From assembly GCA_964642155.1 (NCBI GenBank), contig CAZXNT010000001.1:65238-129237 (forward strand): 64,000 nucleotides of DNA, in the 5' to 3' direction. Origin of the DNA: an uncultured Candidatus Saccharibacteria bacterium (GTDB lineage: Bacteria; Patescibacteriota; Minisyncoccia; UBA6257; UBA9933). The notes beneath the pieces are model-generated. The model was not told the DNA's origin. It did not search any database and was given only the letters and a program-made list of their open reading frames with translations. How positions within the stretch are numbered: the first letter of the stretch is position 1; each line of letters begins with the position of its first letter. Positions 8,481 through 55,584 of this stretch are shown piece after piece. Position numbers and translations under genes: made by a program.

Positions 8481-8581
8481 TAATATCTATCATATCTATA
8501 AATATTTCATCAAATTACATTTCAACCGCGATAGCAGTTGAAATGTAATTTAAATTTATAATTTATATTATATAATTTGAT

Positions 8582-9193: not shown

Positions 9194-9248
9194 CTTTCTA
9201 TTTTATTACATTTCAACCGCGATAGCAATTGAAATGTAACCAAGTAAA

Positions 9249-16046: not shown

Positions 16047-16109
16047 TAATTTAAAATTACATTACGACTGCTATCGCAGGTGTAATGTAATTATTAAAAT
16101 TTTTAATTA

Positions 16110-19583: not shown

Positions 19584-19667
19584 TCCGCCGCTTTCAAAAC
19601 GTGCTTTTTCAGCATTGCCACATATCCCCATTCGTTATCGTACCAGGAAAGAATTTTCACCAAATTC
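19584..19667. repeat. 84-bp direct repeat, identical to 20182-20265 (duplicated 3' end of gap)
   Basis: Identical strings tccgccgctttcaaaacgtgctttttcagcattgccacatatccccattcgttatcgtaccaggaaagaattttcaccaaatt at both positions. The DUF4258/DUF2283 pair lies between them. Confidence 0.9.
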
Positions 19668-25200: not shown

Positions 25201-26754
25201 TTTCAACGGCTCCGCACTTGTTTGCATATTATTCTGCGTATTACTGTTGCTTCCTCCACTGCTGCCACCGCTACTATTTACACTCGCGTTTCCGCTTCCG
25301 CTTCCGCCGGTATATCTAAAAACAATGGTGTTTGTTTGACCGCTTGTTTGATTACTTTGCTCATTGACGTTAATTACAATTTCTTCTTGTTGTTTCTCCT
25401 GATTTTTTATTTCTTCTTTTTTAATTCCTTCTTCATATAACAAATCACTGCCGATCGGCAGTAAACTGTTATAGTCTAAAATTTCATTTTTGATTTCTGT
25501 TGAATTATTGGTTTCTATTATTGAAGAAGTGGCTGTTTCATCAGAATTCGCATTATCAATAGCATTATCCAATAAAGAAATTTGTTGCGGCTGTTGCGAT
25601 TGATTAATCCCCAATAAATTGCCGATTGTTGATTTGACTTGGCTAAAAAGATTTTTTGCAGTTTCAATCGTTTTTGTTAAAAATGATTTATCTTCAATTT
25701 TTGTAAAATTCGGATCATTTTTCGCTTTTTCAACTTCTTGAAAGAAAAGATTAATAACTCCGGCGCCATATTGAACAGATTTAGTGGAAAGACGAGACCA
25801 GTAATCATTCACCACTCTATCTTCATCTTCTATTTTTAAAACAATATTAGATTTTGTTTCTGATATAAAACTATTGTGATAATTTTTATAAACAAATAAA
25901 TAATATAAATTATTATCTTCGTCGTATTTTGCCGCATAATAATAATCTCCATCTTTTTTCAACAATCCTTCTGTATTTGGCTGCGGCAACTCATATCCAC
26001 TCTGTATTCCAATCGTATCTTTGCTATAAAAATTATTATTTGAATATTTCGCCAACCCGTCAAAATAAGAATTTAAATCGGAAAAAATAAATGGGGGCTT
26101 ATTTGACAATCTTTTATTTAAATCAGCGTCGGGGTTAGAAAGAATAAATTTAGCGGTGTAATTTTCATAAGGACTATCTTCGGGATGTGGATCGTTCCTT
26201 GTGTGATCTGGAACAGATGCATCCTCAACTAAATGTAAAATGTGCCCCAAGATAAGCATTGCTTTTTCTTTCTCGCCTTGCGCATAAAATTTAACAGCTC
26301 TTTCCCAAATAAAATCAGTTTCCGTTGTTAAAGCGCTGATTTTTTTCTGCTGAATTGCCGTTAAAACTGAAGCAATTGTTGTTGGAACTTTATAAGTTAA
26401 GCTGTTTTGATTATAGCTATCTTGCGCCCAATCTTTAGATTTTTGCCAAGTGCCTAGATTAATCATGGGATCTATTGCCGGATCGTACGTTAATCCTCTA
26501 TTTTTTACTGGATCATAAAAATGATTCATCCAGCGCGGAATATCATCTTCTTGACGAACTCCATCTAAAAGATATGGAACTAATTCTTCATTGATTTTAT
26601 TATCTGAAAATTTTTGATTATAAAATTTAACAGCCTCATTGGTTAAATAAGCATGAGTTTCAATGCCATAAGCAAAAACATTATTAATACTAATAACAAA
26701 AAATCCTAATATAAAAATTGGGATTAAAAATTTTATATACTTTCTATTTTCCAT
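22237..26754 (-). CDS. giant secreted multidomain protein: Zn-dependent PLC/P1-nuclease-like N-domain, two lamin-tail domains, PKD domain, FN3-like repeats
   Basis: Signal peptide. HILHLVEDASVPDHTRND and YGIETHAYLTNEAV match PLC/S1-P1 zinc-site signatures. Lamin-tail-domain segments around FIEIYNPNS and FVELYNPTD. PKD signature WNFGDN...THIY. Confidence 0.6.
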   Translation of the reverse strand: MENRKYIKFLIPIFILGFFVISINNVFAYGIETHAYLTNEAVKFYNQKFSDNKINEELVPYLLDGVRQEDDIPRWMNHFYDPVKNRGLTYDPAIDPMINLGTWQKSKDWAQDSYNQNSLTYKVPTTIASVLTAIQQKKISALTTETDFIWERAVKFYAQGEKEKAMLILGHILHLVEDASVPDHTRNDPHPEDSPYENYTAKFILSNPDADLNKRLSNKPPFIFSDLNSYFDGLAKYSNNNFYSKDTIGIQSGYELPQPNTEGLLKKDGDYYYAAKYDEDNNLYYLFVYKNYHNSFISETKSNIVLKIEDEDRVVNDYWSRLSTKSVQYGAGVINLFFQEVEKAKNDPNFTKIEDKSFLTKTIETAKNLFSQVKSTIGNLLGINQSQQPQQISLLDNAIDNANSDETATSSIIETNNSTEIKNEILDYNSLLPIGSDLLYEEGIKKEEIKNQEKQQEEIVINVNEQSNQTSGQTNTIVFRYTGGSGSGNASVNSSGGSSGGSNSNTQNNMQTSAEPLKILITEIQLASASSTHDDFIEIYNPNSAVINLQNYRLVKRTQTGASDTLIKSWTSGDSIPANSYYLWANSDCSDMSVVSNSTTTQTISNNNGIAIRYGANDTGQIIDSVAWGEAENIFIENSVFPTNSADGQSIQRKFQSGDFIDIDNNAQDFEIQTCPSPKTQFRTCLQNNQSPVASFIYTSLNPQVGDLILFNAASSTDIDGQIISYQWNFGDNATSSATTATTTHIYSQAGNYQVDLIVFDNQNASSTATSTTILINSLAPAGVNHIVISEIYPDKTGNNFDFVELYNPTDSSIELGNYSLKRQTGSATSTNSLSSFSSSQIIAAKSFFLVGLSNYGSSTYAIADKLNRSYSLSTSGSETISILLFENDAIIDQANYNPVNFIDGQSLERKAFSTSTVDLMVSGEHRFSGNGYDTDSADDFILRNSAEPQNSQNFPEPRNAPITPQNFSIQYSSSTMELNFNWNVSQDYFGATSTIIYKISDISNSSSTFAEINTTSTAAIISLNENNFGKTYLFSIQAFDKENFNSTSSQKEISIPNSTLIIAQQLDKFVFDQGDGNGHFDQDLGNGLLGSPQSITFHAKLPSSGYWIETYYINATFWQSNESDYSNLIKISSNTCTRDNPGATYANGSIYGSDCPNLNFEFNIDKDYTIPIQQSFTFDPSKYYKLKFEIYQNYSYFYGSNNSSSYIYGKATKYDNNSAYIDAGIKDLYFLIKTGSPQSPIELPASISQSVAQNFEANYSTSTLAFSLNWDKPRYFNASSSAPTYRITDISSLVSSSTLVLPEIITSATSTTIAINEVGRNYKFSIVAIDQSGNESLASFSKEINIPYSLNERFIFAQQIDYINTTQAQYSYYRQFLGNNLSGGINSLSIYMKDIGQQDNHNFYFYECDVNYVNCSSLVNHSFTTSDLTTGINTFSFPRITLAASKWYYFNFVFRGSGQNWKLGYSENDAWINGHFVYWDSDSYVPYNGEKDLYFIITSPISLR

Positions 26755-27266
26755 ATTTTAGAATTTTTATTTAATTTTATTTCTATTAATAAATCAATTT
26801 CTCCATTTGAATTGTAAAGTTTAAATAAAGCCCCGTCATCATCTTTAAATGTTAATTTAATTAACGATAATTTAGATATCATCTCTTCTAATCTATTATT
26901 TGTTTTTAATTTCTCTAATCCTTCCTTCAATTTTGGGTCAACGCTCCCGTCGCTTCTTAACACAAAATATTTACTCGCCAACTCAATATCTTCTTTCTTT
27001 AACGCCTCAATAAACATTTGCAAAGTTTCTTCCGGAGTTTTACCGCCATAAATATCTTCTTCCATCGCTTTATTATAATTTTTTTCCCAAGTAAGATATT
27101 TTTCATAATTTTTCTGCGTTTCGCGTTGATATTTTGCCTGCGGACTTAAATATTTCCCCCATAACAAAAAACCTCCAATCGTAAAGATAATAATTCCTAA
27201 AAAACCTATTACAAATTTTCGGAAATTCAACTTATTTTTAAATTCATTATTAATTTGATTATTCAT
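26733..27266 (-). CDS. small membrane-anchored protein, paralog of 27833..28366
   Basis: N-terminal TM. Shared block YGGKTPEETLQMFIEAL...ELASKYF and C-terminal IWKIESI. Confidence 0.5.
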   Translation of the reverse strand: MNNQINNEFKNKLNFRKFVIGFLGIIIFTIGGFLLWGKYLSPQAKYQRETQKNYEKYLTWEKNYNKAMEEDIYGGKTPEETLQMFIEALKKEDIELASKYFVLRSDGSVDPKLKEGLEKLKTNNRLEEMISKLSLIKLTFKDDDGALFKLYNSNGEIDLLIEIKLNKNSKIWKIESI

Positions 27267-27280
27267 ATGATTTATTAAAT

Positions 27281-27817
27281 TTAATTATTTATTATATTAC
27301 TTTTATTAAAAGATGATTTTCTTTGTCTCATTCTTAATGTCGCAATAATAAAAACAAGAATTAGTTCAAAAAATGATGATGTTATTATATAAAAATTTAA
27401 AATGTTTTCTAAAATTTTAATTTCATAATCAGAATAAGAAAAAATTAAGATGTGAATAAATGGGAATATAAAAAGGGTTGCTATGATAATTAATATTGGT
27501 AAAACAAAAAAATTAAATTTATTAGATAAAATTTTTGACATCCATTTAATAATTAAAGCTGGCAATCCTATAAATAATATTAACATTATAATATATTGAG
27601 GGCTGAAATTTAAATTAAAAATATTTTTAAAGAAATTTTTGAGTATATTTAATCGTGTTTCATTTTCTAAATTTGGAAATATTATAATAAGTAATAAATT
27701 ATATAAAAATATAATAAATATAAAAAATAACAAATTAGTTAAAATAATTTTAAATTTCCAAAACTTGCTCTTCGGCTTATTATTCTTATTTAAAGAAATT
27801 AGTATTTTTTTGAACAT
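27281..27817 (-). CDS. polytopic membrane protein sharing an N-terminal motif with both flanking genes
   Basis: N-terminal KPKSKFWKFKIIL compares with KPKGKFWKFTLIF in the upstream paralog. Four or five TM helices. Confidence 0.45.
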   Translation of the reverse strand: MFKKILISLNKNNKPKSKFWKFKIILTNLLFFIFIIFLYNLLLIIIFPNLENETRLNILKNFFKNIFNLNFSPQYIIMLILFIGLPALIIKWMSKILSNKFNFFVLPILIIIATLFIFPFIHILIFSYSDYEIKILENILNFYIITSSFFELILVFIIATLRMRQRKSSFNKSNIINN

Positions 27818-27832
27818 AATTTTAATTACTAA

Positions 27833-28366
27833 TTATATTTCTATTATTTTCCAAATATTATTAGGATAAAGACCTATTCTAATATAAATTGGCTCGTCAA
27901 TAAAAAATTCTTTTCTACCAGGAATATCATCTGATGAAAAATATCCATTTGTAGATTTTTTAAGTAAACTAAGATATTTATCTATAAATTCTTTTGTCAC
28001 TTTATTTAATTTTTCCAATTCTTTTTCCTGATATTTCTCTATAAAATATTTACTCGCCAATTCGTAATTTCCTGTTTCAACGGCGCTTATGTACATTTGC
28101 AAAGTTTCCTGCGGAATTCTACCGCCATAAGTGTCCGCCATGGCTTTTTGATAATCTTCTTGTTTAATTCTTTCCAATCTTCCAGCTAATTCTTCAACCG
28201 CTTTTTCTCCCTGCCATTGCCTAAAAAAATACCAACACCAAGAACTGGCGATATACAAAACAAAAACACCGGCGATTATCGTGAAGAATATCAATGTGAA
28301 CTTCCAAAATTTGCCTTTCGGCTTATTAATTTCGTTTATTTGATTGTTTTGATTTTGATTTTCCAT
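27833..28366 (-). CDS. small membrane-anchored protein, paralog of 26733..27266
   Basis: Same architecture. Its start codon abuts the terminal inverted repeat of MITE copy 1. Confidence 0.5.
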   Translation of the reverse strand: MENQNQNNQINEINKPKGKFWKFTLIFFTIIAGVFVLYIASSWCWYFFRQWQGEKAVEELAGRLERIKQEDYQKAMADTYGGRIPQETLQMYISAVETGNYELASKYFIEKYQEKELEKLNKVTKEFIDKYLSLLKKSTNGYFSSDDIPGRKEFFIDEPIYIRIGLYPNNIWKIIEI

Positions 28367-28513
28367 CCCTCACCCTTCAAAGATTTTCCAGTACATAAAG
28401 CTTTTTATGTACTGGATTATATTGAAGTTTAATTTTATTTTATATCTCATTCATTTTACTTATCATTCCCCTTTACCACTTTCTTTATTTCTTATCTTTG
28501 AAGGGTGAGGGAT
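28365..28513. mobile_element. MITE-like element copy 1 (20-bp terminal inverted repeats ATCCCTCACCCTTCAAAGAT / ATCTTTGAAGGGTGAGGGAT)
   Basis: Termini are identical to the copies at about 50081-50223 and 55438-55584. The interior is AT-rich with a hairpin. Confidence 0.6.
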
Positions 28514-41884: not shown

Positions 41885-43146
41885 TTTTTAAAAATCTTCA
41901 AAAAACCGACTCTGAAATTTACAAACTTATCGTTGCTGAAGATAAACGGCAGAAAGAAACAATAAACCTGATTGCTTCGGAAAATTTTGTTTCCGAAAGT
42001 GTTCTTGAAGCGTTGGGTTCGGTTTTCACTAATAAATACAGCGAAGGATATCCTCATGCCAGATATTACGGAGGCAATGAATTTTGCGACAAATTGGAAG
42101 AATTATGCCAAAAAAGAGCACTTAAACTTTTTAAACTTTCGGCGCGCGAATGGAGCGTTAATGTTCAACCGTATTCCGGTTCTCCGGCAAATCTAGCCGT
42201 CTATTTGGCGCTTGTGCCAATTGACGAATCCGCCTTCGCGCAAGGCTACGGCGGACGAGGAAAAATAATGGGAATGCAACTTGATATGGGCGGGCATCTG
42301 ACGCACGGACACAAAGCGAGCGCCACGGGGAAATTATGGCAACAAATTCCTTACGGCGTTGATGAAAAAACCGAGCAATTAAATTATGATGAAATTTTAC
42401 AAATTGCCAAAAAAGAAAAACCGAAATTGATTGTTTGCGGCTATACCGCTTATTCGCGAATTATTGATTTTAAAAAATTCCGAAAAATCGCCGATGCTGT
42501 TAATGCTATTTTAATGATTGATATGTCTCATTTTGCCGGATTGGTTGCCGGAGGCGTTTATCCTTCTCCTTTTAAATACGCTGACGTTATCACGACAACA
42601 ACGCACAAAACTTTGCGAGGACCCCGCGCCGCGCTCATATTTACGAATAAAAATAAAAAATTACATTACACCAGCGATAGCATGTCTAATGTAATAAATA
42701 AAGCTGTTTTCCCGGGATTGCAAGGCGGGCCACATATGAACGCCGTTGCCGCCGTTGCCGTAGCCTTACAAGAAGCCGCCAAACCGGCTTTTAAAAAATA
42801 TAGCCAACAAATAATAAAAAACGCTAAAACTTTTGCTTTGGAACTGCAAAAACTCGGCTGGCGAATTATTGCTAACGGCACGGATACGCATTTATTTTTA
42901 GTTGATACATGGTCGCGCGGAATTAGTGGAAAAACCGCCGAAACCGCGCTTGAAAAAGCCGGTATAATTGTTAATAAAAATACGATTCCGTTTGACAAAC
43001 GAAGCCCAATTGACCCATCCGGAATAAGAATCGGAACAGCGGCAATCACCAGTCAGGGACTAAAAGAAAAAGATATGAAAAAAATCGCGAAAAAAATAGA
43101 TAAAATTCTAACGGGGTTGACAAAAAAATATAGTAAGTTAAAATAA
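41881..43146 (+). CDS. glyA: serine hydroxymethyltransferase
   Basis: LIASENFVSESVLEALGS and TTTTHKTLRGPR (PLP-binding Lys). Confidence 0.9.
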   Translation: MIFKNLQKTDSEIYKLIVAEDKRQKETINLIASENFVSESVLEALGSVFTNKYSEGYPHARYYGGNEFCDKLEELCQKRALKLFKLSAREWSVNVQPYSGSPANLAVYLALVPIDESAFAQGYGGRGKIMGMQLDMGGHLTHGHKASATGKLWQQIPYGVDEKTEQLNYDEILQIAKKEKPKLIVCGYTAYSRIIDFKKFRKIADAVNAILMIDMSHFAGLVAGGVYPSPFKYADVITTTTHKTLRGPRAALIFTNKNKKLHYTSDSMSNVINKAVFPGLQGGPHMNAVAAVAVALQEAAKPAFKKYSQQIIKNAKTFALELQKLGWRIIANGTDTHLFLVDTWSRGISGKTAETALEKAGIIVNKNTIPFDKRSPIDPSGIRIGTAAITSQGLKEKDMKKIAKKIDKILTGLTKKYSKLK

Positions 43147-43404: not shown

Positions 43405-44826
43405 TTATATTATTACATTGTGGGCTTTTTTATTTTCCAAAATTTCCTCCACGATTTTTTTTTCGTCCCACGGAATTTTTTTATTGCCCGCAACGCACAT
43501 TGACGACTCCCCTCCCTTCCCCGTTAAAATAACAACATCTCCTTTTTGCGCCAAAAACAGCGCCTTTTTAATCGCTTCTCTCCTATCTATAATTTCATAA
43601 ATTTTGGAAATTGGAAATTGTCTGGCTTCGCCAGATCTCGCGAAGCGAGAGAAATTGGAAATTCCAGATTTTATTTCCGATAAAATCTGGCTGGGTTTTT
43701 CGTCATATGGGTCTTCATTCGTCAAAATAACTTCATCGCAATATCGCGTTGCTATTTCGCCCATTTTCGGCCTTTTCCATTTATCCCGTCCTCCGCCCTG
43801 CGCCCCCAATAAACATATCAACTTTGAATTCTGAATTCTGAATTCTGAATTCTGAATTGTTTGATATACTGCTTCCAAACTCACCGGTTCATGGGCGTAA
43901 TCAACAATCACGGTAAAATCACTTACCTTGATAATCTCCATTCTGCCTGCCGGCGATTTTGCCTGCGCCAACGCTTCTTTTATTTTTTCAATCGGGATAT
44001 TTAGCGACAAAGTAACCGCAATCGCCGCCACGGCATTATAAACATTAAATTCCCCAACTAATAGTATTCCAATAATTAATGGTATTTCAATTTTATTACA
44101 TTGCATCTGCGATAGCAGATGTAATGTAACTTCGAATTTTGTTTTATCTGAATATAATTTAATATTTTCTACTTCTAAAATTTTATTTACTTTTGACTTT
44201 TGATTTGAACTTTTGACTTTTATTCCGTATCCGTATTTATTTTTAATTTCCGGTTTTAAAAAATATTCAACGTTTTCATCGTCTAAGTTATAAATCCCAA
44301 CACCATTTTTCTTTCGTGCCACTCTTTCAAATAATTTTATTTTTGCGTTCCGATAATTTTCAAAACCGCCGTGCCGTTCAATATGTTCAGGCGATAAATT
44401 TGTAAAAACCGCGATATCATAATCAATAAAACGATGTCTGTATTGCAAAATCCCCTCTGAAGAAGTTTCTACCACCGCGTATTCGCATTTTTCCGCAACC
44501 ATTTGCCTCAGCAATTTTTGCAGCTGAAACCTGCCGAGCATTGTCTGCTTTGATTCGTTTTTCCATTCCCGCTCGCCTATCCGAAAATCCACCGTGGTTG
44601 CCATTCCGACTTTATGGCCGCTGAAATTCAAAATTTGAGCGATTAAATTGCAAGTGGTGGTTTTTCCTTTGGTTCCGGTAACACCGATGACTTTCATTTT
44701 GTGAGACGGAAAACCATAAATCAAGGCTGAAAAAAATGCCAGAGAAAAATGATAAATCGGCTGGCCGAGCCGATATAAAAATTTCGGAATAATATGTTTT
44801 TCAAAAAATCTTAAAATTTTCTCCAT
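43405..44826 (-). CDS. murE: Mur ligase family protein (MurE-like), with in-frame repeat insertions
   Basis: VIGVTGTKGKTTT P-loop, NLSPEHIERHGGFENYRNAK and a C-terminal GGGRDKWKRP Mur-ligase motif. Contains a 34-bp palindrome, a (GAATTCT)4 tract and a double-hairpin element. Confidence 0.7.
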   Translation of the reverse strand: MEKILRFFEKHIIPKFLYRLGQPIYHFSLAFFSALIYGFPSHKMKVIGVTGTKGKTTTCNLIAQILNFSGHKVGMATTVDFRIGEREWKNESKQTMLGRFQLQKLLRQMVAEKCEYAVVETSSEGILQYRHRFIDYDIAVFTNLSPEHIERHGGFENYRNAKIKLFERVARKKNGVGIYNLDDENVEYFLKPEIKNKYGYGIKVKSSNQKSKVNKILEVENIKLYSDKTKFEVTLHLLSQMQCNKIEIPLIIGILLVGEFNVYNAVAAIAVTLSLNIPIEKIKEALAQAKSPAGRMEIIKVSDFTVIVDYAHEPVSLEAVYQTIQNSEFRIQNSKLICLLGAQGGGRDKWKRPKMGEIATRYCDEVILTNEDPYDEKPSQILSEIKSGISNFSRFARSGEARQFPISKIYEIIDRREAIKKALFLAQKGDVVILTGKGGESSMCVAGNKKIPWDEKKIVEEILENKKAHNVII

Positions 44827-44827
44827 T

Positions 44828-46075
<1,248 letters not shown>

Positions 46076-46077
46076 TA

Positions 46078-46653
46078 TTATTTTGATAAAAATTTCAAAG
46101 CCACCCTTATTCTTTCTTCAATCTTTTTAATTTTCGGAGGCACTTTTTTTATAGCTTCTTTAATTTCGTTTTGTCTATAGCCCAAATTTTCCAAAGCCTT
46201 TTCAATATCAACGTCTATTTCCATTAATGCGATTTCTTCTTCGCTTTTATAATGCTTAATTTTATCTCTTAATTCCAAAATAAGGCGCTGGGCTTTTTTA
46301 TCGCCGATACCCGCAACCTTGGTAAGCAAATCGCTTCTGCCCTGCTTTATGGCGGCCAATAAATTATCAATTTTTATCGCTTCAAAAATTTTCAAACCGG
46401 CTTTCGGGCCAATGCCGTTGGCGGAAATTAAAAGCTCAAAAATTTCCAACTCTCTTTCGCTTGCAAATCCATAGAGCTGAGCGCCGTCTTGCTTAATATT
46501 CGTATAGCAAAATAACGCTGAGTGCGAACCGATTTTCGGCAATTGACGCGCTGTTTTTGATGAAACAAAAAGCTTAAAACCAATGCCGTTAGCTTCAATA
46601 ACAACAAAGCTCTGTTTTTTAACAATTAATTTCCCGGAGATGGAATAAAACAT
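46078..46653 (-). CDS. ruvA: Holliday junction DNA helicase subunit RuvA
   Basis: OB-fold N-terminus and GIGPKAGLKIFEA helix-hairpin-helix motif. Confidence 0.85.
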   Translation of the reverse strand: MFYSISGKLIVKKQSFVVIEANGIGFKLFVSSKTARQLPKIGSHSALFCYTNIKQDGAQLYGFASERELEIFELLISANGIGPKAGLKIFEAIKIDNLLAAIKQGRSDLLTKVAGIGDKKAQRLILELRDKIKHYKSEEEIALMEIDVDIEKALENLGYRQNEIKEAIKKVPPKIKKIEERIRVALKFLSK

Positions 46654-46813
46654 AGAATAACTGCATTATATCTTAAAAAGCGTTGACTTTCAAATTTTTA
46701 TCTGCTATATTCTAAATACTATAAATATAAATCATCCGCGCCTTTGGCGGGATGCTCGATTCTGTAGATAAATTTTCATCGTCTACAGACTTGAAAATTT
46801 ATACATAATCGGC

Positions 46814-47071
46814 ATGCCAATAATCAAATCCGCAAAAAAAGCTCTTCGACAAAATATCCGCCGGAGAAAAACAAACGTAAAAAGAAAAACTGAACTGAAA
46901 TCGGTTATTAAACAGTTTAAAAAATTGGTTGTTGAAGGAAAAAAGGAAGAAGCGCAAAAATACCTTTCCCAAGTTTATAAAAAACTTGATAAATCCGCGA
47001 AGGTTAATCTCATAAAAAAGAATAAAGCTTCAAGATTAAAGTCCCGATTAAGTAAAAAATTGGCAAAATAA
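46814..47071 (+). CDS. rpsT: 30S ribosomal protein S20
   Basis: MPIIKSAKKALRQNIRRR... is a typical bS20 sequence. Confidence 0.85.
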   Translation: MPIIKSAKKALRQNIRRRKTNVKRKTELKSVIKQFKKLVVEGKKEEAQKYLSQVYKKLDKSAKVNLIKKNKASRLKSRLSKKLAK

Positions 47072-47103
47072 AAAATCCCCACAACGCGGGGGATTTTTTA
47101 TTA
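47072..47103. terminator. rho-independent terminator after rpsT (tccccacaacgcggggga followed by a T run)
   Basis: Hairpin plus TTTTTTATT. Confidence 0.65.
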
Positions 47104-47119
47104 CTTATCAGCTTTTAAG

Positions 47120-49204
47120 CTAAGCGGCTACTTGTTTTAATGACAATCCTATTCTTCCGTCTTCAACACGAATCACTTTTACGCGCACCTTATCGCCCAT
47201 TTTAACCACATCTTCAACTTTTTTCACAAAGCCGTCTCTGAGCTCAGAAACATGAGCCATGCCGTCCTTGCCGCCGCCCAAATCAATAATCGCGCCGAAA
47301 TCTAAAATTTTAATGACTTCTCCTTCAACAATTTCGCCGACTTCAAATTCTCGGGTTAAATCTTCTATCATTTTCTTGGCGGCATCCGTGTCTTTGTGAT
47401 TTTTACCGGTGATGAGCACCGTGCCGTCCTGTTCAATGTCAATTTCCGCGCCAGTTTTTTCCGTAATGCCCTTAATAACTTTTCCAGCCGGACCGATAAC
47501 CGCCCCGATTTTCTCCGGGTCAATCATTATTTTAATTATTCTCGGCGCGTAAGAGGAAAGCTCCTTTCTTGATTCGGGGATTTCTTTAAGCATCGTTTCC
47601 ATTATTTCTTCCCTTGCCTTCTTCGCTTGCTTTAAAGTTTTTTCCAAAATTTCCACAGTCACGCCGTCAACCTTAACATCCATCTGAATAGCCGTAACGC
47701 CGTCCTTCGTTCCCGCCACTTTAAAATCCATATCACCGTGATGGTCTTCCGGACCTTGAATGTCGGTCAAAACCTTATAATTCTTTTCGTTTTTCATCAT
47801 CAAGCCCATGGCAATGCCCGCCACCGGCGCCTTAATCGGCACACCAGCGTCCATCAACGCCAAAACAGAGGCGCAAATTGAACCCTGCGAAGTGGAACCG
47901 TTTGACGCCATTGATTCGGAAACAATTCTTATGGTGTAAGGAAATTCTTCGCGAGAAGGAATAACCGCTGATAACGCCCGTTCCGCCAGCGCGCCATGTC
48001 CGATTTCACGCCTGCCCGGATTACCCATCCTGCCTGTTTCGCCGGTGGAAAACGGCGGAAAATTATAATGATGCATAAAATGTTTTTTCATCTGCACTTC
48101 CATTCCTTCAATTAATTGGACATCCTTCGGTCCGCCAAGAGTAACCACTGAAAGCACATGCGTTCCGCCCCTAAAGAAAACACCGGAGCCGTGAAGAGTC
48201 GGCAAGAATCCCGTCTTGGCGAAAATATTCCTTAACTCGTCCATTTTTCTTCCGTCCGGCCTTTTGTCATTTTCCAAAATTTCTTTATGAATAATATTAT
48301 TCACTTCTTCCTCATAAAGGTCGTCGGCCTGATTTTTCTTTTCCGGCCCGAATTTTTCCGCGGCGACTTTCATCCATTGATATTTAAAGTCGCCGATGTC
48401 TCCTTTTACGCCACCGTAAATAACCTTATCTAAGTTTTGGGAAATTTCTTTTTTGAAAAATTCACGCATATCGGCCGGTATTTCGTCCAGTTCAACTTTT
48501 GCCTTTTCTTTCCCGATTTCCAAAATTATTTTTTCCTGAAATTTTTGAACAGTAGCGATTTCTTCAAGCGCCTTTTCCATTCCCTTAATGGCGATGTCTT
48601 CCGGAATTTCTTTCGCGCCAGCCTCTATCATATTTATTTTTCCTTTTGTTCCGCAGATGACGGCATCAAGAGTGGAGTTGCCGCGTTCTTCATAGGTGGG
48701 GTTGACGAGAAGATTTTGTCCGTCATAGCCGATACGGACGGCACCGACTGGCCCGCCCCAAGGGATATCCGATACGCCAAGCGCCAACGAAGCAGCAATA
48801 ATAGCCGGAATATCAGAATCATTTTTAGTATCAATAGAAAGAATGAGTATGGTCACCTGCACTTCGTTTCTTATTTTTTGGTCAAAAAGTGGCCTAATGG
48901 TGCGGTCAATAACGCGCCCCGAAAGTATCGCCTCTTCCGACGGTCTGCCCTCGCGTCTCATAAATCTGCTTCCCAAAATTTGGCCTGCAGCGTAAAATCT
49001 TTCTTCGTAATCAACGGAAAGCGGAAAATAATCAAGGCCTTCGCGCTTGTTCTTTCCCATCACCGCCGTGGCGAAAACCGCCGTATCTTCATAACGGACG
49101 AGAACGGAGCCATTGGCCTGGTCGGCCAAATCGGATATTTCAACAGACAATTTCTTGCCGCCGAAATTAGTTTCGTATTTTTTTATCTGCATAGTTTTTA
49201 CCAT
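47120..49204 (-). CDS. pnp: polyribonucleotide nucleotidyltransferase (PNPase)
   Basis: Two RNase PH-like domains, KH and S1 domains. N-terminus MQIKKYETNFGGKKLSVE. Confidence 0.9.
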   Translation of the reverse strand: MVKTMQIKKYETNFGGKKLSVEISDLADQANGSVLVRYEDTAVFATAVMGKNKREGLDYFPLSVDYEERFYAAGQILGSRFMRREGRPSEEAILSGRVIDRTIRPLFDQKIRNEVQVTILILSIDTKNDSDIPAIIAASLALGVSDIPWGGPVGAVRIGYDGQNLLVNPTYEERGNSTLDAVICGTKGKINMIEAGAKEIPEDIAIKGMEKALEEIATVQKFQEKIILEIGKEKAKVELDEIPADMREFFKKEISQNLDKVIYGGVKGDIGDFKYQWMKVAAEKFGPEKKNQADDLYEEEVNNIIHKEILENDKRPDGRKMDELRNIFAKTGFLPTLHGSGVFFRGGTHVLSVVTLGGPKDVQLIEGMEVQMKKHFMHHYNFPPFSTGETGRMGNPGRREIGHGALAERALSAVIPSREEFPYTIRIVSESMASNGSTSQGSICASVLALMDAGVPIKAPVAGIAMGLMMKNEKNYKVLTDIQGPEDHHGDMDFKVAGTKDGVTAIQMDVKVDGVTVEILEKTLKQAKKAREEIMETMLKEIPESRKELSSYAPRIIKIMIDPEKIGAVIGPAGKVIKGITEKTGAEIDIEQDGTVLITGKNHKDTDAAKKMIEDLTREFEVGEIVEGEVIKILDFGAIIDLGGGKDGMAHVSELRDGFVKKVEDVVKMGDKVRVKVIRVEDGRIGLSLKQVAA

Positions 49205-49299
49205 GCCGAGAAGCCCGAACTTTCAGATTTTAGAACACAAAAATGATTTTTCTGTTCTACTTATCCGCAAACCCGGAACCCTTACGACATAGAATTAAA

Positions 49300-49812
49300 T
49301 TATTTTTTTAATATTACTCTTGGCATTCGATCTAAGTCAATAAAATAATCGGCTACTTCTTTAAGTTTAGCGGACGCGCTTCTGCCGAACGCCGCCACCT
49401 CCACTTCTCTGCCCAATCCCCATTTTAGATATTCAACTAAAGGAATAAAATCTCCATCGCCGGTCACTAAAATAATAGCGTCCAAAGAATTTGCCATCCT
49501 GATGGCGTCAACCGCCATCCCCACGTCCCAGTCAGCTTTTTTCATTCCGCCCGCGAAAATCTGAAGGTCTTTCATTCTTAATTCAATACCGGATTTTTCC
49601 AAGGCTTCAAAAAAAGACGCTTCGCCGGAAATAGCCGATTGCTCGCTCTTTACCACATAGCCGATCGCCCTTATTAATTGGCGATTGCCAATAAGCGTTT
49701 TTATCAATTCTTTATAATTGACTCTGGCGTGATGGATATTCTTCGCCGAATGGTAAAGATTTTGAATATCAATAAAAATTCCGACTCGCTGATCTTTGTG
49801 TTTAACTAACAT
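49300..49812 (-). CDS. NYN/LabA-like PIN-fold domain protein
   Basis: VGIFIDIQNLYHS ... AIILVTGDGDFIPLVEYLK motif. Inserted between rpsO and pnp. Confidence 0.65.
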   Translation of the reverse strand: MLVKHKDQRVGIFIDIQNLYHSAKNIHHARVNYKELIKTLIGNRQLIRAIGYVVKSEQSAISGEASFFEALEKSGIELRMKDLQIFAGGMKKADWDVGMAVDAIRMANSLDAIILVTGDGDFIPLVEYLKWGLGREVEVAAFGRSASAKLKEVADYFIDLDRMPRVILKK

Positions 49813-50082
49813 TTATTTTTTCAAGCCGAGTTTTCGCACTAAGCTTGTATAACTTTTATTATCACTGCTTTCCAAATAAGAAAGGAATTTCTTTCTTTTG
49901 CCAACCATTTTTAAGAGCCCGCGGCGGGAATGATTGTCTTTAGCATTCTTCTTAAGATGGTCAGCTAATTCATTAATCTGCTTGGTTAAAAGCGCGATTT
50001 GAATTTCAACCGACCCGGTGTCGGTTTCATGAAGCCCGTACTCTTTCGCGATATTTTGTTTTTGCCTGACGGTTAAAGCCAT
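49813..50082 (-). CDS. rpsO: 30S ribosomal protein S15
   Basis: [16 protein letters not shown]...[20 protein letters not shown]. Confidence 0.9.
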
Positions 50083-50223
50083 CCCTCACCCTTCAAAGAT
50101 TTTTTATGAATTTTATTTATTAAAATTCATAAAATTATGATAATTGAAGATTAATTTTAATTTATTTATTATTTATTCCCTGCGCCATAAAATGATATTT
50201 ATTATCTTTAAAGGGTGAGGGAT
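50081..50223. mobile_element. MITE-like element copy 2, abutting the rpsO start codon
   Basis: Left terminus ATCCCTCACCCTTCAAAGAT at 50081-50100, right terminus ATCTTTAAAGGGTGAGGGAT at 50204-50223. Internal palindrome. Confidence 0.6.
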
Positions 50224-50314
50224 AATTTATAAAATTTAACACAGGTTAAAATAAAAAACAAGGGCAGTAAAAAAGTTTTGTTTGCAAAGAAGAAGAGGGC
50301 GCGAAAGGGACTCC

Positions 50315-50710
50315 CTATAAGATTTTTGAATACTCTTGATAATTTTTTCTTACCACCGCTTTCCAACTTGCGGTTTCGTTTTCACCCCCTAAATCATTTT
50401 TACTATATACCAATAAAACACGGACGGTTGAAGTGTGTTTATGAACAGCGATAATGCACCTATTGCCGGAAGCGTGTCTAGACTCTTGAGTTCCATGCAC
50501 ACGGAACTCTGTTTTGCAAACCCTTACATCCCCAGCTTCAGTAATGGTTTCTGCTATGTTTGTTTGCCCGATCAATGTATCAATGCGCTTAAACTCCTCG
50601 TGCATAGCAGTCCAAGTTACATCCCATGCCCCTTTATGCTTCTTTTTAAATTTAGAGATAAAGTGTCGTTCCGCGTATCGTTCTATAATAACCGTATAAT
50701 TAGTAAACAT
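50315..50710 (-). CDS. putative toxin partner of the HTH-Panacea antitoxin (family not recognised)
   Basis: 131-aa ORF overlapping the upstream antitoxin-like gene by 11 bp. GC-rich relative to its surroundings. Confidence 0.4.
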   Translation of the reverse strand: MFTNYTVIIERYAERHFISKFKKKHKGAWDVTWTAMHEEFKRIDTLIGQTNIAETITEAGDVRVCKTEFRVHGTQESRHASGNRCIIAVHKHTSTVRVLLVYSKNDLGGENETASWKAVVRKNYQEYSKIL

Positions 50711-51377
50711 AATCGGGGTCCTGTTGAGTTATCAATTCATACGGAATCATTTCATCTGGAGCGCAGAGTTTGTAGGGTAACTGTTCGTGAGTAAAATCAA
50801 TAATTTCTTGAGTTCTTTTATTTTTCCACTTTGTGGATATTTTTTTCATTAAATTAACTTCTTCGGTTTTAAGAAAATCAAGTTTTTGGTGTTGCGCGCC
50901 CGCGCCAATAAGAATGGCGCCACCCTTATAATCAACAGTTATTTTCCCTTCCTCCTCAAGCTCTGCAAGCGCTCTGAAATACGAATCGGGCACAGGACCA
51001 TACGTTCGGCGCAAATATTGCATCCCGCTCATACTCTCAAGATTCGTGTAATACCACGCGAAATCAGCCAAATAGAGAAGCTTGGCTAATTTAGTTTTTG
51101 GAACTTTTCCGTCAGTAGAAATTGAAGATTTAAGAAAAGCAATAATCATTTGCTTATATTTTTCATACTTTGGCAAAGTGGCTTTTGCAAATTCTTCGAT
51201 AGAAATGCCGAACAGATTTTTTAACTTCTGCGCTTCATCTAGGGTGAGACCCCTGTTCCCGCGCTCAATGGCTACATATGAAGGACGGGAAAGCCCCAAT
51301 TTATCCGCGACAAAAGACTGCGAAAAATCCCGCTCTGTTCGAAGAGCTTTTATAAATTGCGCATATTTATTAATCAT
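50700..51377 (-). CDS. HTH (XRE-family) plus Panacea/DUF4065-domain protein, putative antitoxin
   Basis: N-terminal Cro/C1-type HTH (FVADKLGLSRPSYVAIERG). C-terminal KLAKLLYLADFAWYY resembles the DUF4065 signature. Confidence 0.55.
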   Translation of the reverse strand: MINKYAQFIKALRTERDFSQSFVADKLGLSRPSYVAIERGNRGLTLDEAQKLKNLFGISIEEFAKATLPKYEKYKQMIIAFLKSSISTDGKVPKTKLAKLLYLADFAWYYTNLESMSGMQYLRRTYGPVPDSYFRALAELEEEGKITVDYKGGAILIGAGAQHQKLDFLKTEEVNLMKKISTKWKNKRTQEIIDFTHEQLPYKLCAPDEMIPYELITQQDPDYVY

Positions 51378-51481
51378 ACTAGAAGTATATTTATGTATGT
51401 AAAAAAGTCAAGCATTAAGTGTTGATAAATTTTACATTTAAAAATTAAGGTTGTAAGATAACGGCGACGATCATCCTTTGG

Positions 51482-52294
51482 TCATGGACGCCCTAGTGGA
51501 AATGCCCGAGGCGCAAATGCCCTTATGTTTGCCCCTCCTACCCCTTTTGCGCGCACAGAGAAACGCTCCCGTCCTTTCAAACTATACTTAAAAACATCGT
51601 TCACTTCTCGAATATTTTTATTTGCTTCTTTTACATATATAGGTTGAACTTCTGTTCCTAAATAATTTCTTCTATGTAATAAAGCAGCTACGGCAGTGGA
51701 ACCCGAACCCATAAATGGGTCCAAAATAGTATCTCCTTCTTTGCTGAAAAGTCGCATGAACCACGAAGGTAATTCAATTGGAAAAACAGCGCTATGATTT
51801 TTTCTCGAAGAGGATTCGACAGCTGATTCAAATATATTACTCAAATACAATCTATGTTCTTCTTCAAAAACTATTACATTATGCGGGAAAACCTTTTTCT
51901 TATTAAGCCAATTTGAAACATTGCGACCTAAATGAGAATTGTTTTTAGAAATGTGTCTGACAAAATCATTTTCGCTCATTGATTTAAAACGCTTCTCTGC
52001 CCAGCTCCCAATTGGAACCTTAACCGCATCTTGATACATTTTGAAATCTTTTTGCTTTGTGAATTGTAAACAACATTCCCATGAATCACGAAACCGATTG
52101 GGCCATTTTCCAGGGAATGAATTTTTCTTATACCAACAATACTCTTCGATCCAAAACCATCCTTGCTTTTTCAATTCCAAAATTAACTCCAGAACATAAG
52201 TTTCTCGCTCACCATTTTTGGGATGTTCTTTTATATTGAGAATAAATAAACCATCGTCTTTTAGTACTCTGTAAAGTTCTTTTGTGATCGGCAA
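51482..52294 (-). pseudogene. N-4/N-6 DNA methyltransferase (PF01555-like), N-terminally truncated and lacking the DPPY motif
   Basis: C-terminal SAM motif DPFMGSGSTAVAA and RVLKDDG block are present. The frame is closed by an upstream stop about 30 codons before TTG, with no DPPY/NPPY. The sortase gene's 3' end occupies the expected N-terminal coding region. Confidence 0.5.
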
Positions 52295-52371
52295 AAACCA
52301 CTGAACATATTTATCTGGATGAGTACCACCATACGATTTTTTTCTTTTTTCCCGACGGGGTTTGTATTTTG

Positions 52372-53007
52372 TTATTCTTTATCAGTAAAAACTATGAGTC
52401 GATCAGAACGAGTTTTCTCGGCCTTATTCCAAACTCCCGCGCAAGTAATAAGGTTAAGGTGCGCTTTTCCGTCACTTGAACCAAATACATCCGAGGCATC
52501 CGCGTTCTTGTCATATCTCCGAATTTCGCGCACAACAAAAGTAACAATCGCCCCTTTTTCATTTTCAATATACATTTTATCACCTTTGCGTATTTTATGT
52601 AAATTATCAAATACTGCCGGTATATCATTTTTCCAGCCATAGTGCCCGGCAATAACAGAACTTCCGTTTTCTCCGGGGCGCGGGCCGAGATTAAACCACG
52701 CTACCCCAATAGGACCTTTAGGCACGTCCATTGCTCCGTCGGATGTAAGACCTACATACTCGACGGAGGCATCAACCTTTATACTTGGAATTTTGAGATG
52801 CACCGGAAGTCCCATACCCCCTTGTTGCTGGGTCAGTATTTGGGATAATTGCTGCTGAAGCTGGACTATCTGTTGTTGAATCTGGGTAATTAATGTTTGA
52901 AGTTGGCTGTCAGTCATTCGCTGAGCCTTTACGACAAGGTTCGGCGATAATAAAAAAAACACTACTATAAATAATAAGATTGATAAACTCTTTCGGAAAA
53001 ATTTCAT
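52372..53007 (-). CDS. sortase (TLITC active site) with N-terminal TM and Gln-rich coiled coil
   Basis: Catalytic His (VIAGHYGW), Cys (LNLITCAG) and Arg (TRSDRLIVF). Signal-anchor MKFFRKSLSILLFIVVFFLL. Confidence 0.75.
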   Translation of the reverse strand: MKFFRKSLSILLFIVVFFLLSPNLVVKAQRMTDSQLQTLITQIQQQIVQLQQQLSQILTQQQGGMGLPVHLKIPSIKVDASVEYVGLTSDGAMDVPKGPIGVAWFNLGPRPGENGSSVIAGHYGWKNDIPAVFDNLHKIRKGDKMYIENEKGAIVTFVVREIRRYDKNADASDVFGSSDGKAHLNLITCAGVWNKAEKTRSDRLIVFTDKE

Positions 53008-53113
53008 ATTTTTATAGTTTAATTACTTTATTTATTATACTACAACCAAAAACTACTCATAAAAGGTGGCTATAGAAAATACGCAGGCAAAAGAAGAAAA
53101 AGATAACTAATAC

Positions 53114-54355
53114 CTACTTAACACTAGGAGGAAAACCTGTATTTGGCAGTTTTATCATTGCTGAGAGTTGAGCTTGAAGTAATTGTACTAATTGCTGCAT
53201 CAGAGGAATGAGCTGTTGTTTAATCTGGTTAATCTGGGCTAAAATCTGCTGGTTTGATACAGGTGTCGGTGTCGGTGTCGGAGCTACTGTTAGTACAACC
53301 ACAGGAGTTGAGGTTGGTGTTGGTGTTGGGGTAGGGGTAGGGGTAGGTGTTGGTGTTGGTTGGGTAACATTAACCACCACACTGTTCGACGCACCAGCAC
53401 AATTTATTGAATACGTTGTATTTGATGTCGGTGAAACGCTAACACTTCCTGAAATAGCATTTCCTGTTGAGAAGTTGGTACCAGAACAACTTGCCGCATT
53501 TGAGCTTGACCACGATAGGGTTGACGAATTACCACTTATGATTGAGGTTGGATTTGCTGAAATTGTTGCTGTTGGGGTTGGTGGTGGAGTAACGGCAACA
53601 ATTGGCTTGGTAACAGTGTTTGCATCTAACGTAGCTGCGGTCTGTGCGAGTGCCCTGCCGTTTAGCGTTGCACCGGTGTTCAGCACAATTGCTGTTTGAT
53701 CCAATATATTTCCATTAAAGACAGCTGTCGTTCCAAGTGTCGTTTGGCCAGCAACCTGCCAGAAGATGTTAGCGGCCTGCGCACCGCCACTCAGGACAAC
53801 CTGCACAGCGGAACTCACAGTGAGATTTTGCGCTATCTGAAATATCCAAACATCATTGGCACCGCCCGAGAGAGTGACATTCGTTGGTATTGTCACGCCG
53901 GTACTCCATTTATAAAGTCCCGGAGCTAATGTCATTCCGCCAATATTTCCCGCACCCAATTCAGTCGCAGTCGGATTTGTTCTCCCCGCGGCATCAGTGT
54001 ACGCGGTTTCCATGTCACTTACCGCTGTAGTCATTGTAGCTGGAGTAGGAGCCGTATAGTCGGCTGCATATACTTTTCCGGTTACTATGGCTGATGTCGA
54101 AAATGTATTCGAAGCGTCCAGTATTAATCCGAATCCAGTTATGGCAGTCGCGGCGATTGGGCTCACTCCAATATCTCCAGTAATTGAGGTATTTCCGGTG
54201 GTTGAGATCCCCGACTTCGTTAGAATCACGAAATTGCCTGCTGATCCGAGATTTACTGTCGCTGGACCTGCAGCAAGCACAGCCATTGGCCCGGTGAGAC
54301 CAAACATAAATGCAAGACCTAATACAACCACTAAACCCTTGTTAAATTTTTTCAT
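53114..54355 (-). CDS. surface protein with DUF3494 (ice-binding-like) domain, Ig-like domain, PT linker, Gln-rich coiled coil and C-terminal LPNTG
   Basis: LGSAGNFVILTKSGISTTGNTSITGDIGVSP matches the DUF3494 signature. (PT)n linker. The ORF ends KLPNTGFPPSVK. Confidence 0.7.
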   Translation of the reverse strand: MKKFNKGLVVVLGLAFMFGLTGPMAVLAAGPATVNLGSAGNFVILTKSGISTTGNTSITGDIGVSPIAATAITGFGLILDASNTFSTSAIVTGKVYAADYTAPTPATMTTAVSDMETAYTDAAGRTNPTATELGAGNIGGMTLAPGLYKWSTGVTIPTNVTLSGGANDVWIFQIAQNLTVSSAVQVVLSGGAQAANIFWQVAGQTTLGTTAVFNGNILDQTAIVLNTGATLNGRALAQTAATLDANTVTKPIVAVTPPPTPTATISANPTSIISGNSSTLSWSSSNAASCSGTNFSTGNAISGSVSVSPTSNTTYSINCAGASNSVVVNVTQPTPTPTPTPTPTPTPTSTPVVVLTVAPTPTPTPVSNQQILAQINQIKQQLIPLMQQLVQLLQAQLSAMIKLPNTGFPPSVK

Positions 54356-54454
54356 ATATTTTATTTATTTATTATTTTGTTAATGACTTTTATTGGTGGC
54401 AAGTATGGTCGACTACATACATGTTCCAATAATCGATTATTTTTTACGACCTTT

Positions 54455-54500
54455 ATTATAGTTTACCCCCCCCCCCGATAATTTTGCAATGTGTATTAAG
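54455..54500 (-). promoter_or_regulatory. candidate promoter with a G12 homopolymer (C12 on the plus strand, 54466-54477) between a TTGCAA -35-like hexamer and a perfect TATAAT
   Basis: Minus-strand read: TTGCAA aattatc G12 taaac TATAAT, about 95 nt upstream of the start of 53114..54355. Confidence 0.45.
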
Positions 54501-54815
54501 TCCACCCCTTTCATATCTCAGTGTTAGCCGCCGAAAATCCAAAAACAAAATCAGTCTCGGTTTTGCCAAATCCCTTCTCCCAGAAAATAGTTTTGGCAAA
54601 ACCGAGTCCGCATTAGTTCCGCCACACTGCCCAAATACTTGGAGAGCAGAACCTCGAAAAAAAATGTCTTTTCTTTTTTAAAAGAAATTGGTCGCGCGCA
54701 AATCCGAAAATGCGAACAAAACTTTTCTGTGGTGTGGCGAGCGTTAGCGAGCGGCGGCGGGGCGGGTCAGTTGTTCCGCTCAAAATGGGTTCGTGCATTT
54801 TCAAACAAAGGGCAG

Positions 54816-54890
54816 TGTCCTCGACAGGAATCGAACCTGTACCGCCTCCTTCGGAGGGAGGCATTGTATCCATTCAACTACGAGGACTTA
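54816..54890 (-). tRNA. tRNA-Arg (anticodon CCG)
   Basis: Reverse complement has acceptor stem GTCCTCG/CGAGGAC, anticodon stem CCTCC/GGAGG with loop CTCCGAA, and T-loop TTCGATT. Confidence 0.75.
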
Positions 54891-55439: not shown

Positions 55440-55584
55440 CCCTCACCCTTCAAAGATCTATTTTTAATTTTAATATAATTAAAATTAAAAATAAAATTCT
55501 TTAAATTATTATTTTATTAAAATTTTATTTTTTACTCTTTAATCCTTTATCCTTCAATTTTCCAATCTCTGAAGGGTGAGGGAT
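55438..55584. mobile_element. MITE-like element copy 3
   Basis: Termini ATCCCTCACCCTTCAAAGAT ... ATCTCTGAAGGGTGAGGGAT. AT-rich palindromic interior. Confidence 0.6.

Follow-up and report, generated by a model that had tools for sequence, protein, structure and literature searches.

A 4.55-kb accessory insert between tRNA-Arg(CCG) and rpsO in a Patescibacteria genome, probably assembled stepwise at an insertion/deletion hotspot

The interval between tRNA-Arg(CCG) and rpsO in a Paceibacterota-like member of the Patescibacteria is probably a hotspot of insertion and deletion, occupied in the genome studied here by 4.55 kb of foreign accessory DNA that was probably built up stepwise and not delivered as one element. 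We analysed this interval within a 64-kb stretch of DNA (the window; 37.4% G+C), whose nearest matches in public collections are metagenome-assembled genomes (MAGs) from groundwater. Patescibacteria have tiny genomes with few recognisable mobile elements, and where insertion hotspots are documented they reveal how accessory genes are nevertheless exchanged. The present locus illustrates this cleanly: one relative has an empty site, a sister clade has other cargo, and dozens of unrelated contexts harbour its toxin-antitoxin (TA) cassette; its biology is conventional, consisting of a TA system, an apparently dead methyltransferase gene and a predicted surface protein, as in an ordinary decayed island.

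The limits of the insert are set by comparison with L124, a 35-kb groundwater contig that is syntenic with window positions 37-61 kb at 76-84% nucleotide identity. Homology between the two (blastn and alignment) stops at 50262 and at the tRNA 3' end at 54815, and the insert therefore spans 50263-54814, its first base directly following the 3' end of tRNA-Arg(CCG). The order in L124 is an NMD3-like gene, tRNA-Arg(CCG), a 55-bp spacer, the rpsO promoter block, a miniature inverted-repeat transposable element (MITE) and rpsO; none of the five insert genes is present in its slot. On the rpsO side, the promoter block at 50222-50262 is near-identical in L124 and conserved in two further relatives, L001 and L083, and on the other side tRNA-Arg(CCG) lies at the equivalent position in L083 and L124. 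All five genes in 50230-54815 are on the minus strand, and they are the ones listed by the first-pass annotation of this DNA, namely a toxin, an HTH-Panacea antitoxin, a methyltransferase, a sortase and an LPNTG protein with a DUF3494 domain. The segment delimited there is real, with limits that agree to within ~35 bp with 50263-54814, and its placement beside tRNA-Arg(CCG) is borne out by ARAGORN and Rfam, as the insert abuts the tRNA 3' end. The features of the locus are as follows.

50222-50262, minus strand: promoter-like block upstream of rpsO, part of the flank and outside the insert
50263-54814, no strand assigned: whole accessory insert, 4,552 bp with limits of ±3 bp, from the tRNA-Arg(CCG) 3' end to the rpsO promoter block
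50307-51445, minus strand: self-contained TA cassette (promoter/operator, antitoxin gene, toxin gene), a recurring unit of ~1.13 kb
50315-50710, minus strand: putative toxin, 131 aa, RelE/HigB2/YoeB-like fold by AlphaFold (AF2) model and Foldseek
50700-51377, minus strand: antitoxin, 225 aa, HTH_3 followed by SocA_Panacea (PanA-type) by Pfam
51384-51411, minus strand: TA promoter, TTGACT-16-TATACT, matching the consensus at 10/12 positions
51482-52369, minus strand: 5'-truncated beta-class N6/N4 DNA methyltransferase gene; open reading frame (ORF) 51482-52294 from a TTG at 52294, frame open to 52369
52372-53007, minus strand: sortase, 211 aa, with signal anchor, Q-rich helix and catalytic domain (Pfam Sortase)
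53114-54355, minus strand: DUF3494/ice-binding-like secreted protein, 413 aa, with Thr/Pro linker, Q-rich helix and tail-less LPNTG (Pfam)
54356-54814, minus strand: non-coding leader/spacer, 459 bp, containing a C11/G11 run, a hairpin and a 59-nt piece
54815-54887, minus strand: tRNA-Arg(CCG) (ARAGORN; Rfam 66.3 bits), the right-hand boundary of the insert

A comparison of the tRNA-Arg locus among relatives, proposed in the first-pass annotation, finds the slot empty in L124 and filled with other cargo in L083. The latter forms a sister clade with L001 and L084 (96.5-98.4% identical to one another where they overlap, and 92-93% to L124), in which the TA cassette meets the rpsO promoter at exactly the same point. 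Separating tRNA from cassette in L083 are ~2.7 kb of unrelated DNA with a DUF5667 fragment, and over this stretch L083 has nothing in common with the window. Because the cassette is shared while the tRNA-proximal DNA differs, the slot is variable and its contents have different histories. The 55-bp spacer of L124 has no homologue in L083 or the insert of the window; local alignments scored 14-15 at best and were full of gaps. Sortase or DUF3494 homologues are absent from the 1.8 Mb of fetched loci save for L122, a contig from a separate assembly in which they are identical to those of the window. Over window positions 43829-54759 L122 is 100% identical, which confirms that insert and rpsO form one continuous sequence.

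The TA cassette next to rpsO combines an antitoxin gene and a toxin gene that overlap by 11 nt. The antitoxin matches HTH_3 at 4.4e-12 (46.3 bits) and SocA_Panacea (PF13274) at 3.7e-11 (44.4 bits, cut-off 25.7), and an operator-like palindrome lies upstream of the promoter, in a block that is conserved before the cassette in ~25 loci. With constant ends, the unit of ~1.13 kb recurs in 34 metagenome contigs at 62-80% nucleotide identity, its flanks being unrelated in 33 of the 34; the adjacency and order of antitoxin and toxin genes are kept in every one of the 31 loci that reach the adjacent position, and three contigs end at the toxin gene. At 92% nucleotide identity, the cassette is found within a defence island in L081 and L082; the neighbours of this copy in GCA_030693235.1 are AbiEii, GmrSD and Mrr genes, and that genome has only the cassette and a 59-nt piece in common with the window. 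The cassette has spread over unrelated contexts, and its G+C (34-44%) does not track that of its hosts (38-52%). A tRNA gene is found within ~300 bp of it in ~5-6 of ~20 distinct contexts.

Side by side with this count, individual copies lie 48-304 bp from tRNA-Ala(GGC), tRNA-Phe, tRNA-His and tRNA-Ser genes in L085, L087, L089, L090, L096, L100, L103, L109 and L110.

The toxin sequence has no match in Pfam, NCBIfam or a PDB profile search, and PADLOC returned nothing usable for it; its 433 homologues are mostly of 131 aa and come from Patescibacteria, and no relatives were found in IMG/VR. An AF2 model built from 32 homologues (pLDDT 76, a moderate value; pTM 0.73) has the topology E-H-H-(H)-E-E-E-E-H, corresponding to the beta-alpha-alpha-beta4 fold of RelE/ParE. 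The top Foldseek matches in the PDB are nearly all toxins of the RelE superfamily (best 1wmi_A, E=5.6e-4), with probabilities of 0.97-1.00 for RelE, HigB2 and YoeB and target-normalised TM-scores of up to 0.73. On the strength of this model, the putative toxin is probably a ribosome-dependent mRNA endonuclease. In a survey of PanA/PanT type II TA systems, HTH domains were described for 343 sequences of PanA, together with numerous partner toxins unrelated to one another (Kurata et al. 2022; PMC8832971). The window system resembles these in joining an N-terminal HTH to the Panacea (DUF4065) domain in its antitoxin and in its bicistronic operon with overlapping genes, but differs in that its toxin belongs to no Pfam or NCBIfam family and owes its RelE/HigB2/YoeB fold to a predicted structure only. 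The antitoxin would probably repress the TTGACT/TATACT promoter and neutralise the putative toxin by binding it.

The middle of the insert is taken up by the methyltransferase gene. Its match to Pfam N6_N4_Mtase is restricted to profile positions 35-221, and the alignment of the remnant to a plasmid-encoded methyltransferase of 304 aa begins at residue 34 of the latter, with 52% amino acid identity. The truncation falls exactly at catalytic motif IV, on the side toward the sortase gene: (D/S/N)PP(Y/F) is absent upstream in all three frames, where in-frame stops are present. At the DNA level the gene is 71-72% identical to methyltransferase genes of type II restriction-modification (R-M) systems on gammaproteobacterial plasmids, and the plasmid and phage collections, the two that were searched, gave no other DNA-level match. 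Set against the PmeII-family type II R-M methyltransferase of the Acinetobacter schindleri plasmid NZ_CP030758.1, the remnant shares 52% amino acid and ~71% nucleotide identity over residues 34-268 and retains the FxGxG AdoMet-binding region, but its first ~33 residues are missing, and with them the catalytic xPPY; it also carries a 15-aa insertion and has no restriction endonuclease gene nearby. By these sequence features, it appears to be a dead remnant of a type II R-M methyltransferase gene, of which the 3' three-quarters are left. A phage or plasmid origin of the insert as a whole was rejected, as there is no phage match and the plasmid matches cover the methyltransferase gene only.

The two genes nearest the tRNA encode a sortase and a predicted secreted protein. 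The sortase matches PF04203 at 4.4e-22 (78.6 bits); its best NCBIfam match is class F at 124 bits, which is under the 166-bit cut-off, and no subclass is assigned. Its neighbour matches the Pfam family Ice_binding at 1.4e-80 and has the C-terminal end KLPNTGFPPSVK, finishing in LPNTGFPPSVK* with just six residues after LPNTG. No hydrophobic or charged tail follows, and the frame past the stop holds no hidden one, so that the tripartite sorting signal (LPXTG, hydrophobic stretch, positive tail) is incomplete. The nearest homologues of this DUF3494 protein are 76-88% identical, and several of those with a source name are from Patescibacteria; close homologues exist that carry the full signal of LPNTG, hydrophobic segment and RRKQ tail. 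Among 28 LPXTG-bearing homologues, a Q-rich helix with a tail-less LPNTG is found in 6 and a canonical tail in 22. Horizontal transfer of DUF3494 genes is known (PMC6892780, PMC7783341), and no paper mentioning DUF3494 and sortase together was found in the literature searched.

A Q-rich helix precedes the LPNTG at the C-terminus of the DUF3494 protein (53114-53260), and a similar Q-rich helix follows the membrane anchor at the N-terminus of the sortase (~52820-52910).

As in established sortase/LPXTG systems, the sortase gene adjoins that of a secreted protein ending in LPNTG; what sets the window pair apart is a substrate with neither hydrophobic nor charged tail, and the Q-rich helix that substrate and sortase each carry. 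The membrane-anchored sortase would cut the LPNTG of the secreted DUF3494 beta-solenoid protein and fix that protein to the cell envelope. Two bolder proposals, graded as a single claim that one or the other or both hold, strike us as a long shot: that TA cassettes of ~1.1 kb move between Patescibacteria without a linked recombinase and land preferentially beside tRNA genes, and/or that a variant sorting pathway recruits a tail-less substrate to its sortase through matching Q-rich helices. If the former were true, recombinase-free TA movement would be an unrecognised, site-biased route of insertion, possibly host-encoded or driven by transformation, in organisms with very few classical mobile elements.

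By dinucleotide, tetranucleotide and codon measures, the insert is the most atypical stretch of the 64-kb window. The GC-normalised tetranucleotide profile of the segment correlates with that of the window at r=0.71, against 0.946±0.043, placing it in the lowest 0.5% of windows, and the lowest-ranking windows all start at 49.7-50.8 kb. The Karlin dinucleotide difference delta* is 155 against 44.9±16.3, a value equalled by no null window; without the DUF3494 gene it is 115 against 57±21, still within the top 0.9%. CpG is over-represented in the host (1.52) and not in the insert (1.06), and amino-acid-normalised synonymous codon usage deviates in all five genes (z=-1.7 to -3.0; Mann-Whitney p=1.9e-4).

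G+C content conveys none of this. The segment 50230-54815 has 40.8% G+C against 37.4% for the window, the 97.6th percentile of same-size windows, so that the description in the first-pass annotation as visibly richer in G+C captures a slight elevation that exists but does not distinguish the segment: it is the effect of one gene. The DUF3494 gene is 47% G+C and encodes an Ala/Thr/Gly/Pro-rich product, and the segment without it (50230-53100) has 38.1%. As G+C at third codon positions (GC3) is normal in all five genes (0.30-0.37 against a window mean of 0.36), the excess is an amino-acid effect of that gene. Nor are both flanks AT-rich, as had been stated, the left one (47000-50229, pnp to rpsO) having 42.1% G+C; pnp itself exceeds the insert in G+C, and its excess relative to its surroundings is present in all lineages examined and is not informative. 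G+C as a mark of foreign DNA was therefore rejected, GC3 being normal and pnp being G+C-rich in every lineage examined, and both measures are uninformative on foreign origin here. The compositional contrast claimed for the segment holds by tetranucleotides, delta* and codon usage and fails by G+C; the lesson is that G+C is a poor guide to foreign DNA at this locus, where oligonucleotide and codon signatures are effective.

We infer from this material that the insert was assembled from three modules. Module 1, next to rpsO, would be a compact, self-regulated type II TA cassette; module 2, in the middle, the remnant of a seemingly dead type II R-M methyltransferase; and module 3, next to the tRNA, a two-gene surface-display unit with its own 459-bp leader including the G11 tract. 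The TA cassette, farthest from the tRNA, would be the oldest resident, because the sister clade has it in the same position. An R-M unit may have come second, and the sortase/DUF3494 unit last, at the tRNA side, where its arrival would have removed the methyltransferase 5' end.

The locus shares much with tRNA-associated genomic islands and with tandem accretion at tRNA hotspots. Its insert abuts a tRNA 3' end, is sporadic in relatives with one empty site, has an atypical oligonucleotide and codon signature, and carries accessory cargo (TA system, R-M remnant, surface protein), and other relatives have other cargo in the same slot. It departs from such islands in having neither an integrase nor a direct repeat of the tRNA 3' end, in breaking directly after the tRNA and not inside it, and in being very small (4.55 kb) and decayed, in a host of the reduced-genome Patescibacteria. 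No recombinase domain was detected in any of the five ORFs with Pfam and NCBIfam, in agreement with the first-pass annotation, which had also placed xerD 36 kb away; the nearest recombinase is a XerC/D-type gene at 14151-15056, ~35 kb off. The search for a tRNA 3'-end repeat near 50230 that the annotation had suggested was run and came back empty: within 49000-54790 there is no shared k-mer of 10 nt or longer, and the best 25-mer has 10 mismatches. As there is no integrase and there are no tRNA-derived att repeats, the segment is not self-mobile now. A 10/17 resemblance to the tRNA end after the toxin stop was also considered and discarded; it is a conserved end of the cassette and not significant.

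The first-pass annotation took the segment for a single horizontally acquired island, and one explanation along these lines is a single integrative element that entered once at the tRNA-Arg flank by site-specific recombination, its integrase being lost later or its mobilisation occurring in trans. Such an event would fit the tRNA adjacency, the empty site in a relative and the atypical codon usage common to all five genes, and it can draw on a direct repeat, ACTGCCCTT(T)GTTT, which matches at 12/13 nt exactly at both junctions, one copy overlapping the tRNA end by 2 nt. The two copies are the following.

50256-50268, no strand assigned: left copy of the junction direct repeat, AAACAAGGGCAGT, a 12/13 match with one indel to 54803-54816
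54803-54816, no strand assigned: right copy of the junction direct repeat, AAACAAAGGGCAGT, overlapping the last 2 nt of the tRNA

This repeat is only suggestive, its alignment score of 11 being matched by 2.2% of random segment pairs (p≈0.02), and a single entry is unlikely on several other counts: integrase and tRNA 3'-end repeat are both missing; L083, L001 and L084 have the same junction and TA part but differ in the tRNA-proximal part; the truncation of the methyltransferase gene is internal; and the 55-bp spacer of the empty site is not in the window. What stands of the claim of horizontal acquisition is accessory, variable, foreign DNA beside a tRNA gene; the single island and G+C as its signal do not. 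The accessory, mobile type of the cargo is upheld by the recurrence of the TA cassette in unrelated contexts and by the methyltransferase matches to plasmid genes, whereas the TA cassette shared with a 77%-identical clade, the differing tRNA-proximal part and the internal truncation speak against one island.

The stepwise build-up at a hotspot has also to be weighed against vertical inheritance, in which the region would be ancestral and lost differentially, with a deletion in L124 and no recent transfer into this genome. Several observations that count against stepwise acquisition are in keeping with this. The TA copies of the window and L083, at identical positions, have 77% nucleotide identity and their flanks 75-80%, a level of divergence that vertical descent fits equally well, and parsimony favours a single loss over two gains, given the tree ((L083,L124),window); the empty site is known from a single genome, 21-24% diverged from the window at the nucleotide level, and a deletion in L124 is possible. 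A further point against stepwise acquisition is that, other than the DUF3494 gene, the modules taken singly do not have a significantly atypical dinucleotide signature (p=0.09-0.37). No relative exceeds 82% nucleotide identity across the slot, L123 ending inside the NYN gene, and with no close relative spanning the slot the arrival order rests on geometry and one truncation. We nevertheless consider vertical descent of the whole region improbable: the insert has the most atypical dinucleotide, tetranucleotide and codon signatures of the window, L083 shares nothing with it between tRNA and TA cassette, the cassette is dispersed over unrelated contexts with a 92% identical copy in a non-syntenic genome, and at the DNA level the methyltransferase gene is similar to genes on plasmids of another phylum. 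These two are the main rivals, the single decayed island conflicting with the phyletic patterns of the modules and the ancestral region lost in L124 with composition. An assembly or binning chimera, in which the 59-nt piece shared with a co-occurring organism would have served to link a foreign contig to the tRNA flank, can be given very little credence. L122 does end at 54759, inside this piece, which is also in L081, and for the last 56 bp to the tRNA synteny is the sole support. However, L122 holds the insert contiguous with rpsO, pnp and ruvA in its 100% match to 43829-54759, tRNA-Arg and the NMD3-like gene adjoin rpsO or TA-rpsO in L124 and L083, and an artificial join would have had to rebuild the true synteny by chance.

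The leader between the DUF3494 gene and the tRNA was measured at 459 bp (54356-54814), longer than the 340-bp non-coding stretch of the first-pass annotation; the homopolymer reported there corresponds to 11 consecutive C residues at 54466-54476 (C11, or G11 when read on the coding strand), some 110 bp before the start of the DUF3494 gene. This run is a candidate slipped-strand switch by its sequence, and its length does not vary between the window and L122. At 54548-54613, a ~15-bp stem followed by a U-rich tract on the minus strand has the appearance of a terminator separating the tRNA from the DUF3494 operon. The GC-rich 59-nt piece (54707-54765) occurs once in the window and is 90% identical to L081 8022-8080; in L081, which also holds a 92% TA copy, the piece is inverted relative to the cassette, and L122 ends within it. 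An Rfam search of 49-57 kb at E≤1 finds tRNA only.

The first-pass annotation had drawn the left edge of the island at a MITE, three copies of which are present in the window.

28367-28511: MITE-like element, ~140 bp
50083-50221, no strand assigned: MITE-like element, copy 2, bounded by terminal inverted repeats (TIRs), abutting the rpsO ATG and outside the insert
55440-55582: MITE-like element, ~140 bp

The TIR, CCCTCACCCTTYAAAGA, occurs six times in the window against 0 expected, the TIRs being 17-19 nt long. The repeat and its TIRs are thus as described, but the element is not the island edge: copy 2 is present in the empty-site contig L124 and absent from the TA-bearing L001 and L083, and the rpsO promoter block (50222-50262) separates it from the insert. 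Copy 3 is not in L124. The MITE as a boundary was rejected, since its presence does not co-vary with the insert, and a mechanistic link between the two is not supported. The end of each of the three copies coincides with the ATG of a gene on the minus strand (...GGGTGAGGG followed directly by ATGG), and a MITE transcript is predicted to fold into a long hairpin that would sequester the start region (z=-6.5).

In other lineages of Patescibacteria, orthologues of the window XerC/D gene (54-57% identical) lie directly upstream of rpsO, in divergent orientation, at L118 7849-8733, L121 2919-3881 and L125 4651-5517.

Choosing relatives by PNPase identity proved misleading. The PNPase encoded by pnp (47120-49204) is 84-90% identical to those of L118-L121, whose loci are not syntenic with the window; for L118, L120 and L121, identity to the window falls to 51-59% in the rpsO and NYN proteins. 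The relatives useful for the slot, L001, L083 and L124, have PNPases only ~71% identical; in the syntenic L001 and L124, rpsO is 96-97% and NYN 84-85% identical, but PNPase 71%. This pattern of identities suggests a xenologous replacement of pnp in one lineage.

L124 also contains a nested tRNA. At 8725-8906, the T-loop of a window-type tRNA-Arg(CCG) is interrupted by 135 nt of inserted DNA, which consists of a complete second tRNA-Arg(CCG) of the L083 type flanked by inverted repeats of 13-15 nt (CCCCCACACTTAT / ATAAGTGTGGGGG); the outer type stands alone in the window and the inner type alone in L083.

Elsewhere in the window, a family of palindromic repeats of ~35 nt, ATTACATT...GCGATAGC...AATGTAAT, has at least seven occurrences.

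7617-7651: ~35-nt palindromic repeat
7812-7846: ~35-nt palindromic repeat
8515-8549: ~35-nt palindromic repeat
9205-9239: ~35-nt palindromic repeat
16056-16090: ~35-nt palindromic repeat
42660-42695: ~35-nt palindromic repeat
44095-44129: ~35-nt palindromic repeat

Three tandem ORFs of ~177 aa each at 26733-28366 have a G+C of 16-30%, the middle one (27281-27817) having 16.2%; no Pfam domain was found in the one tested. The first and third have in common a 93-nt stretch of 74% identity and may be paralogues. A perfect direct repeat of 83 bp (19584-19666 and 20182-20264, 598 bp apart) lies across the starts or ends of two neighbouring ORFs.

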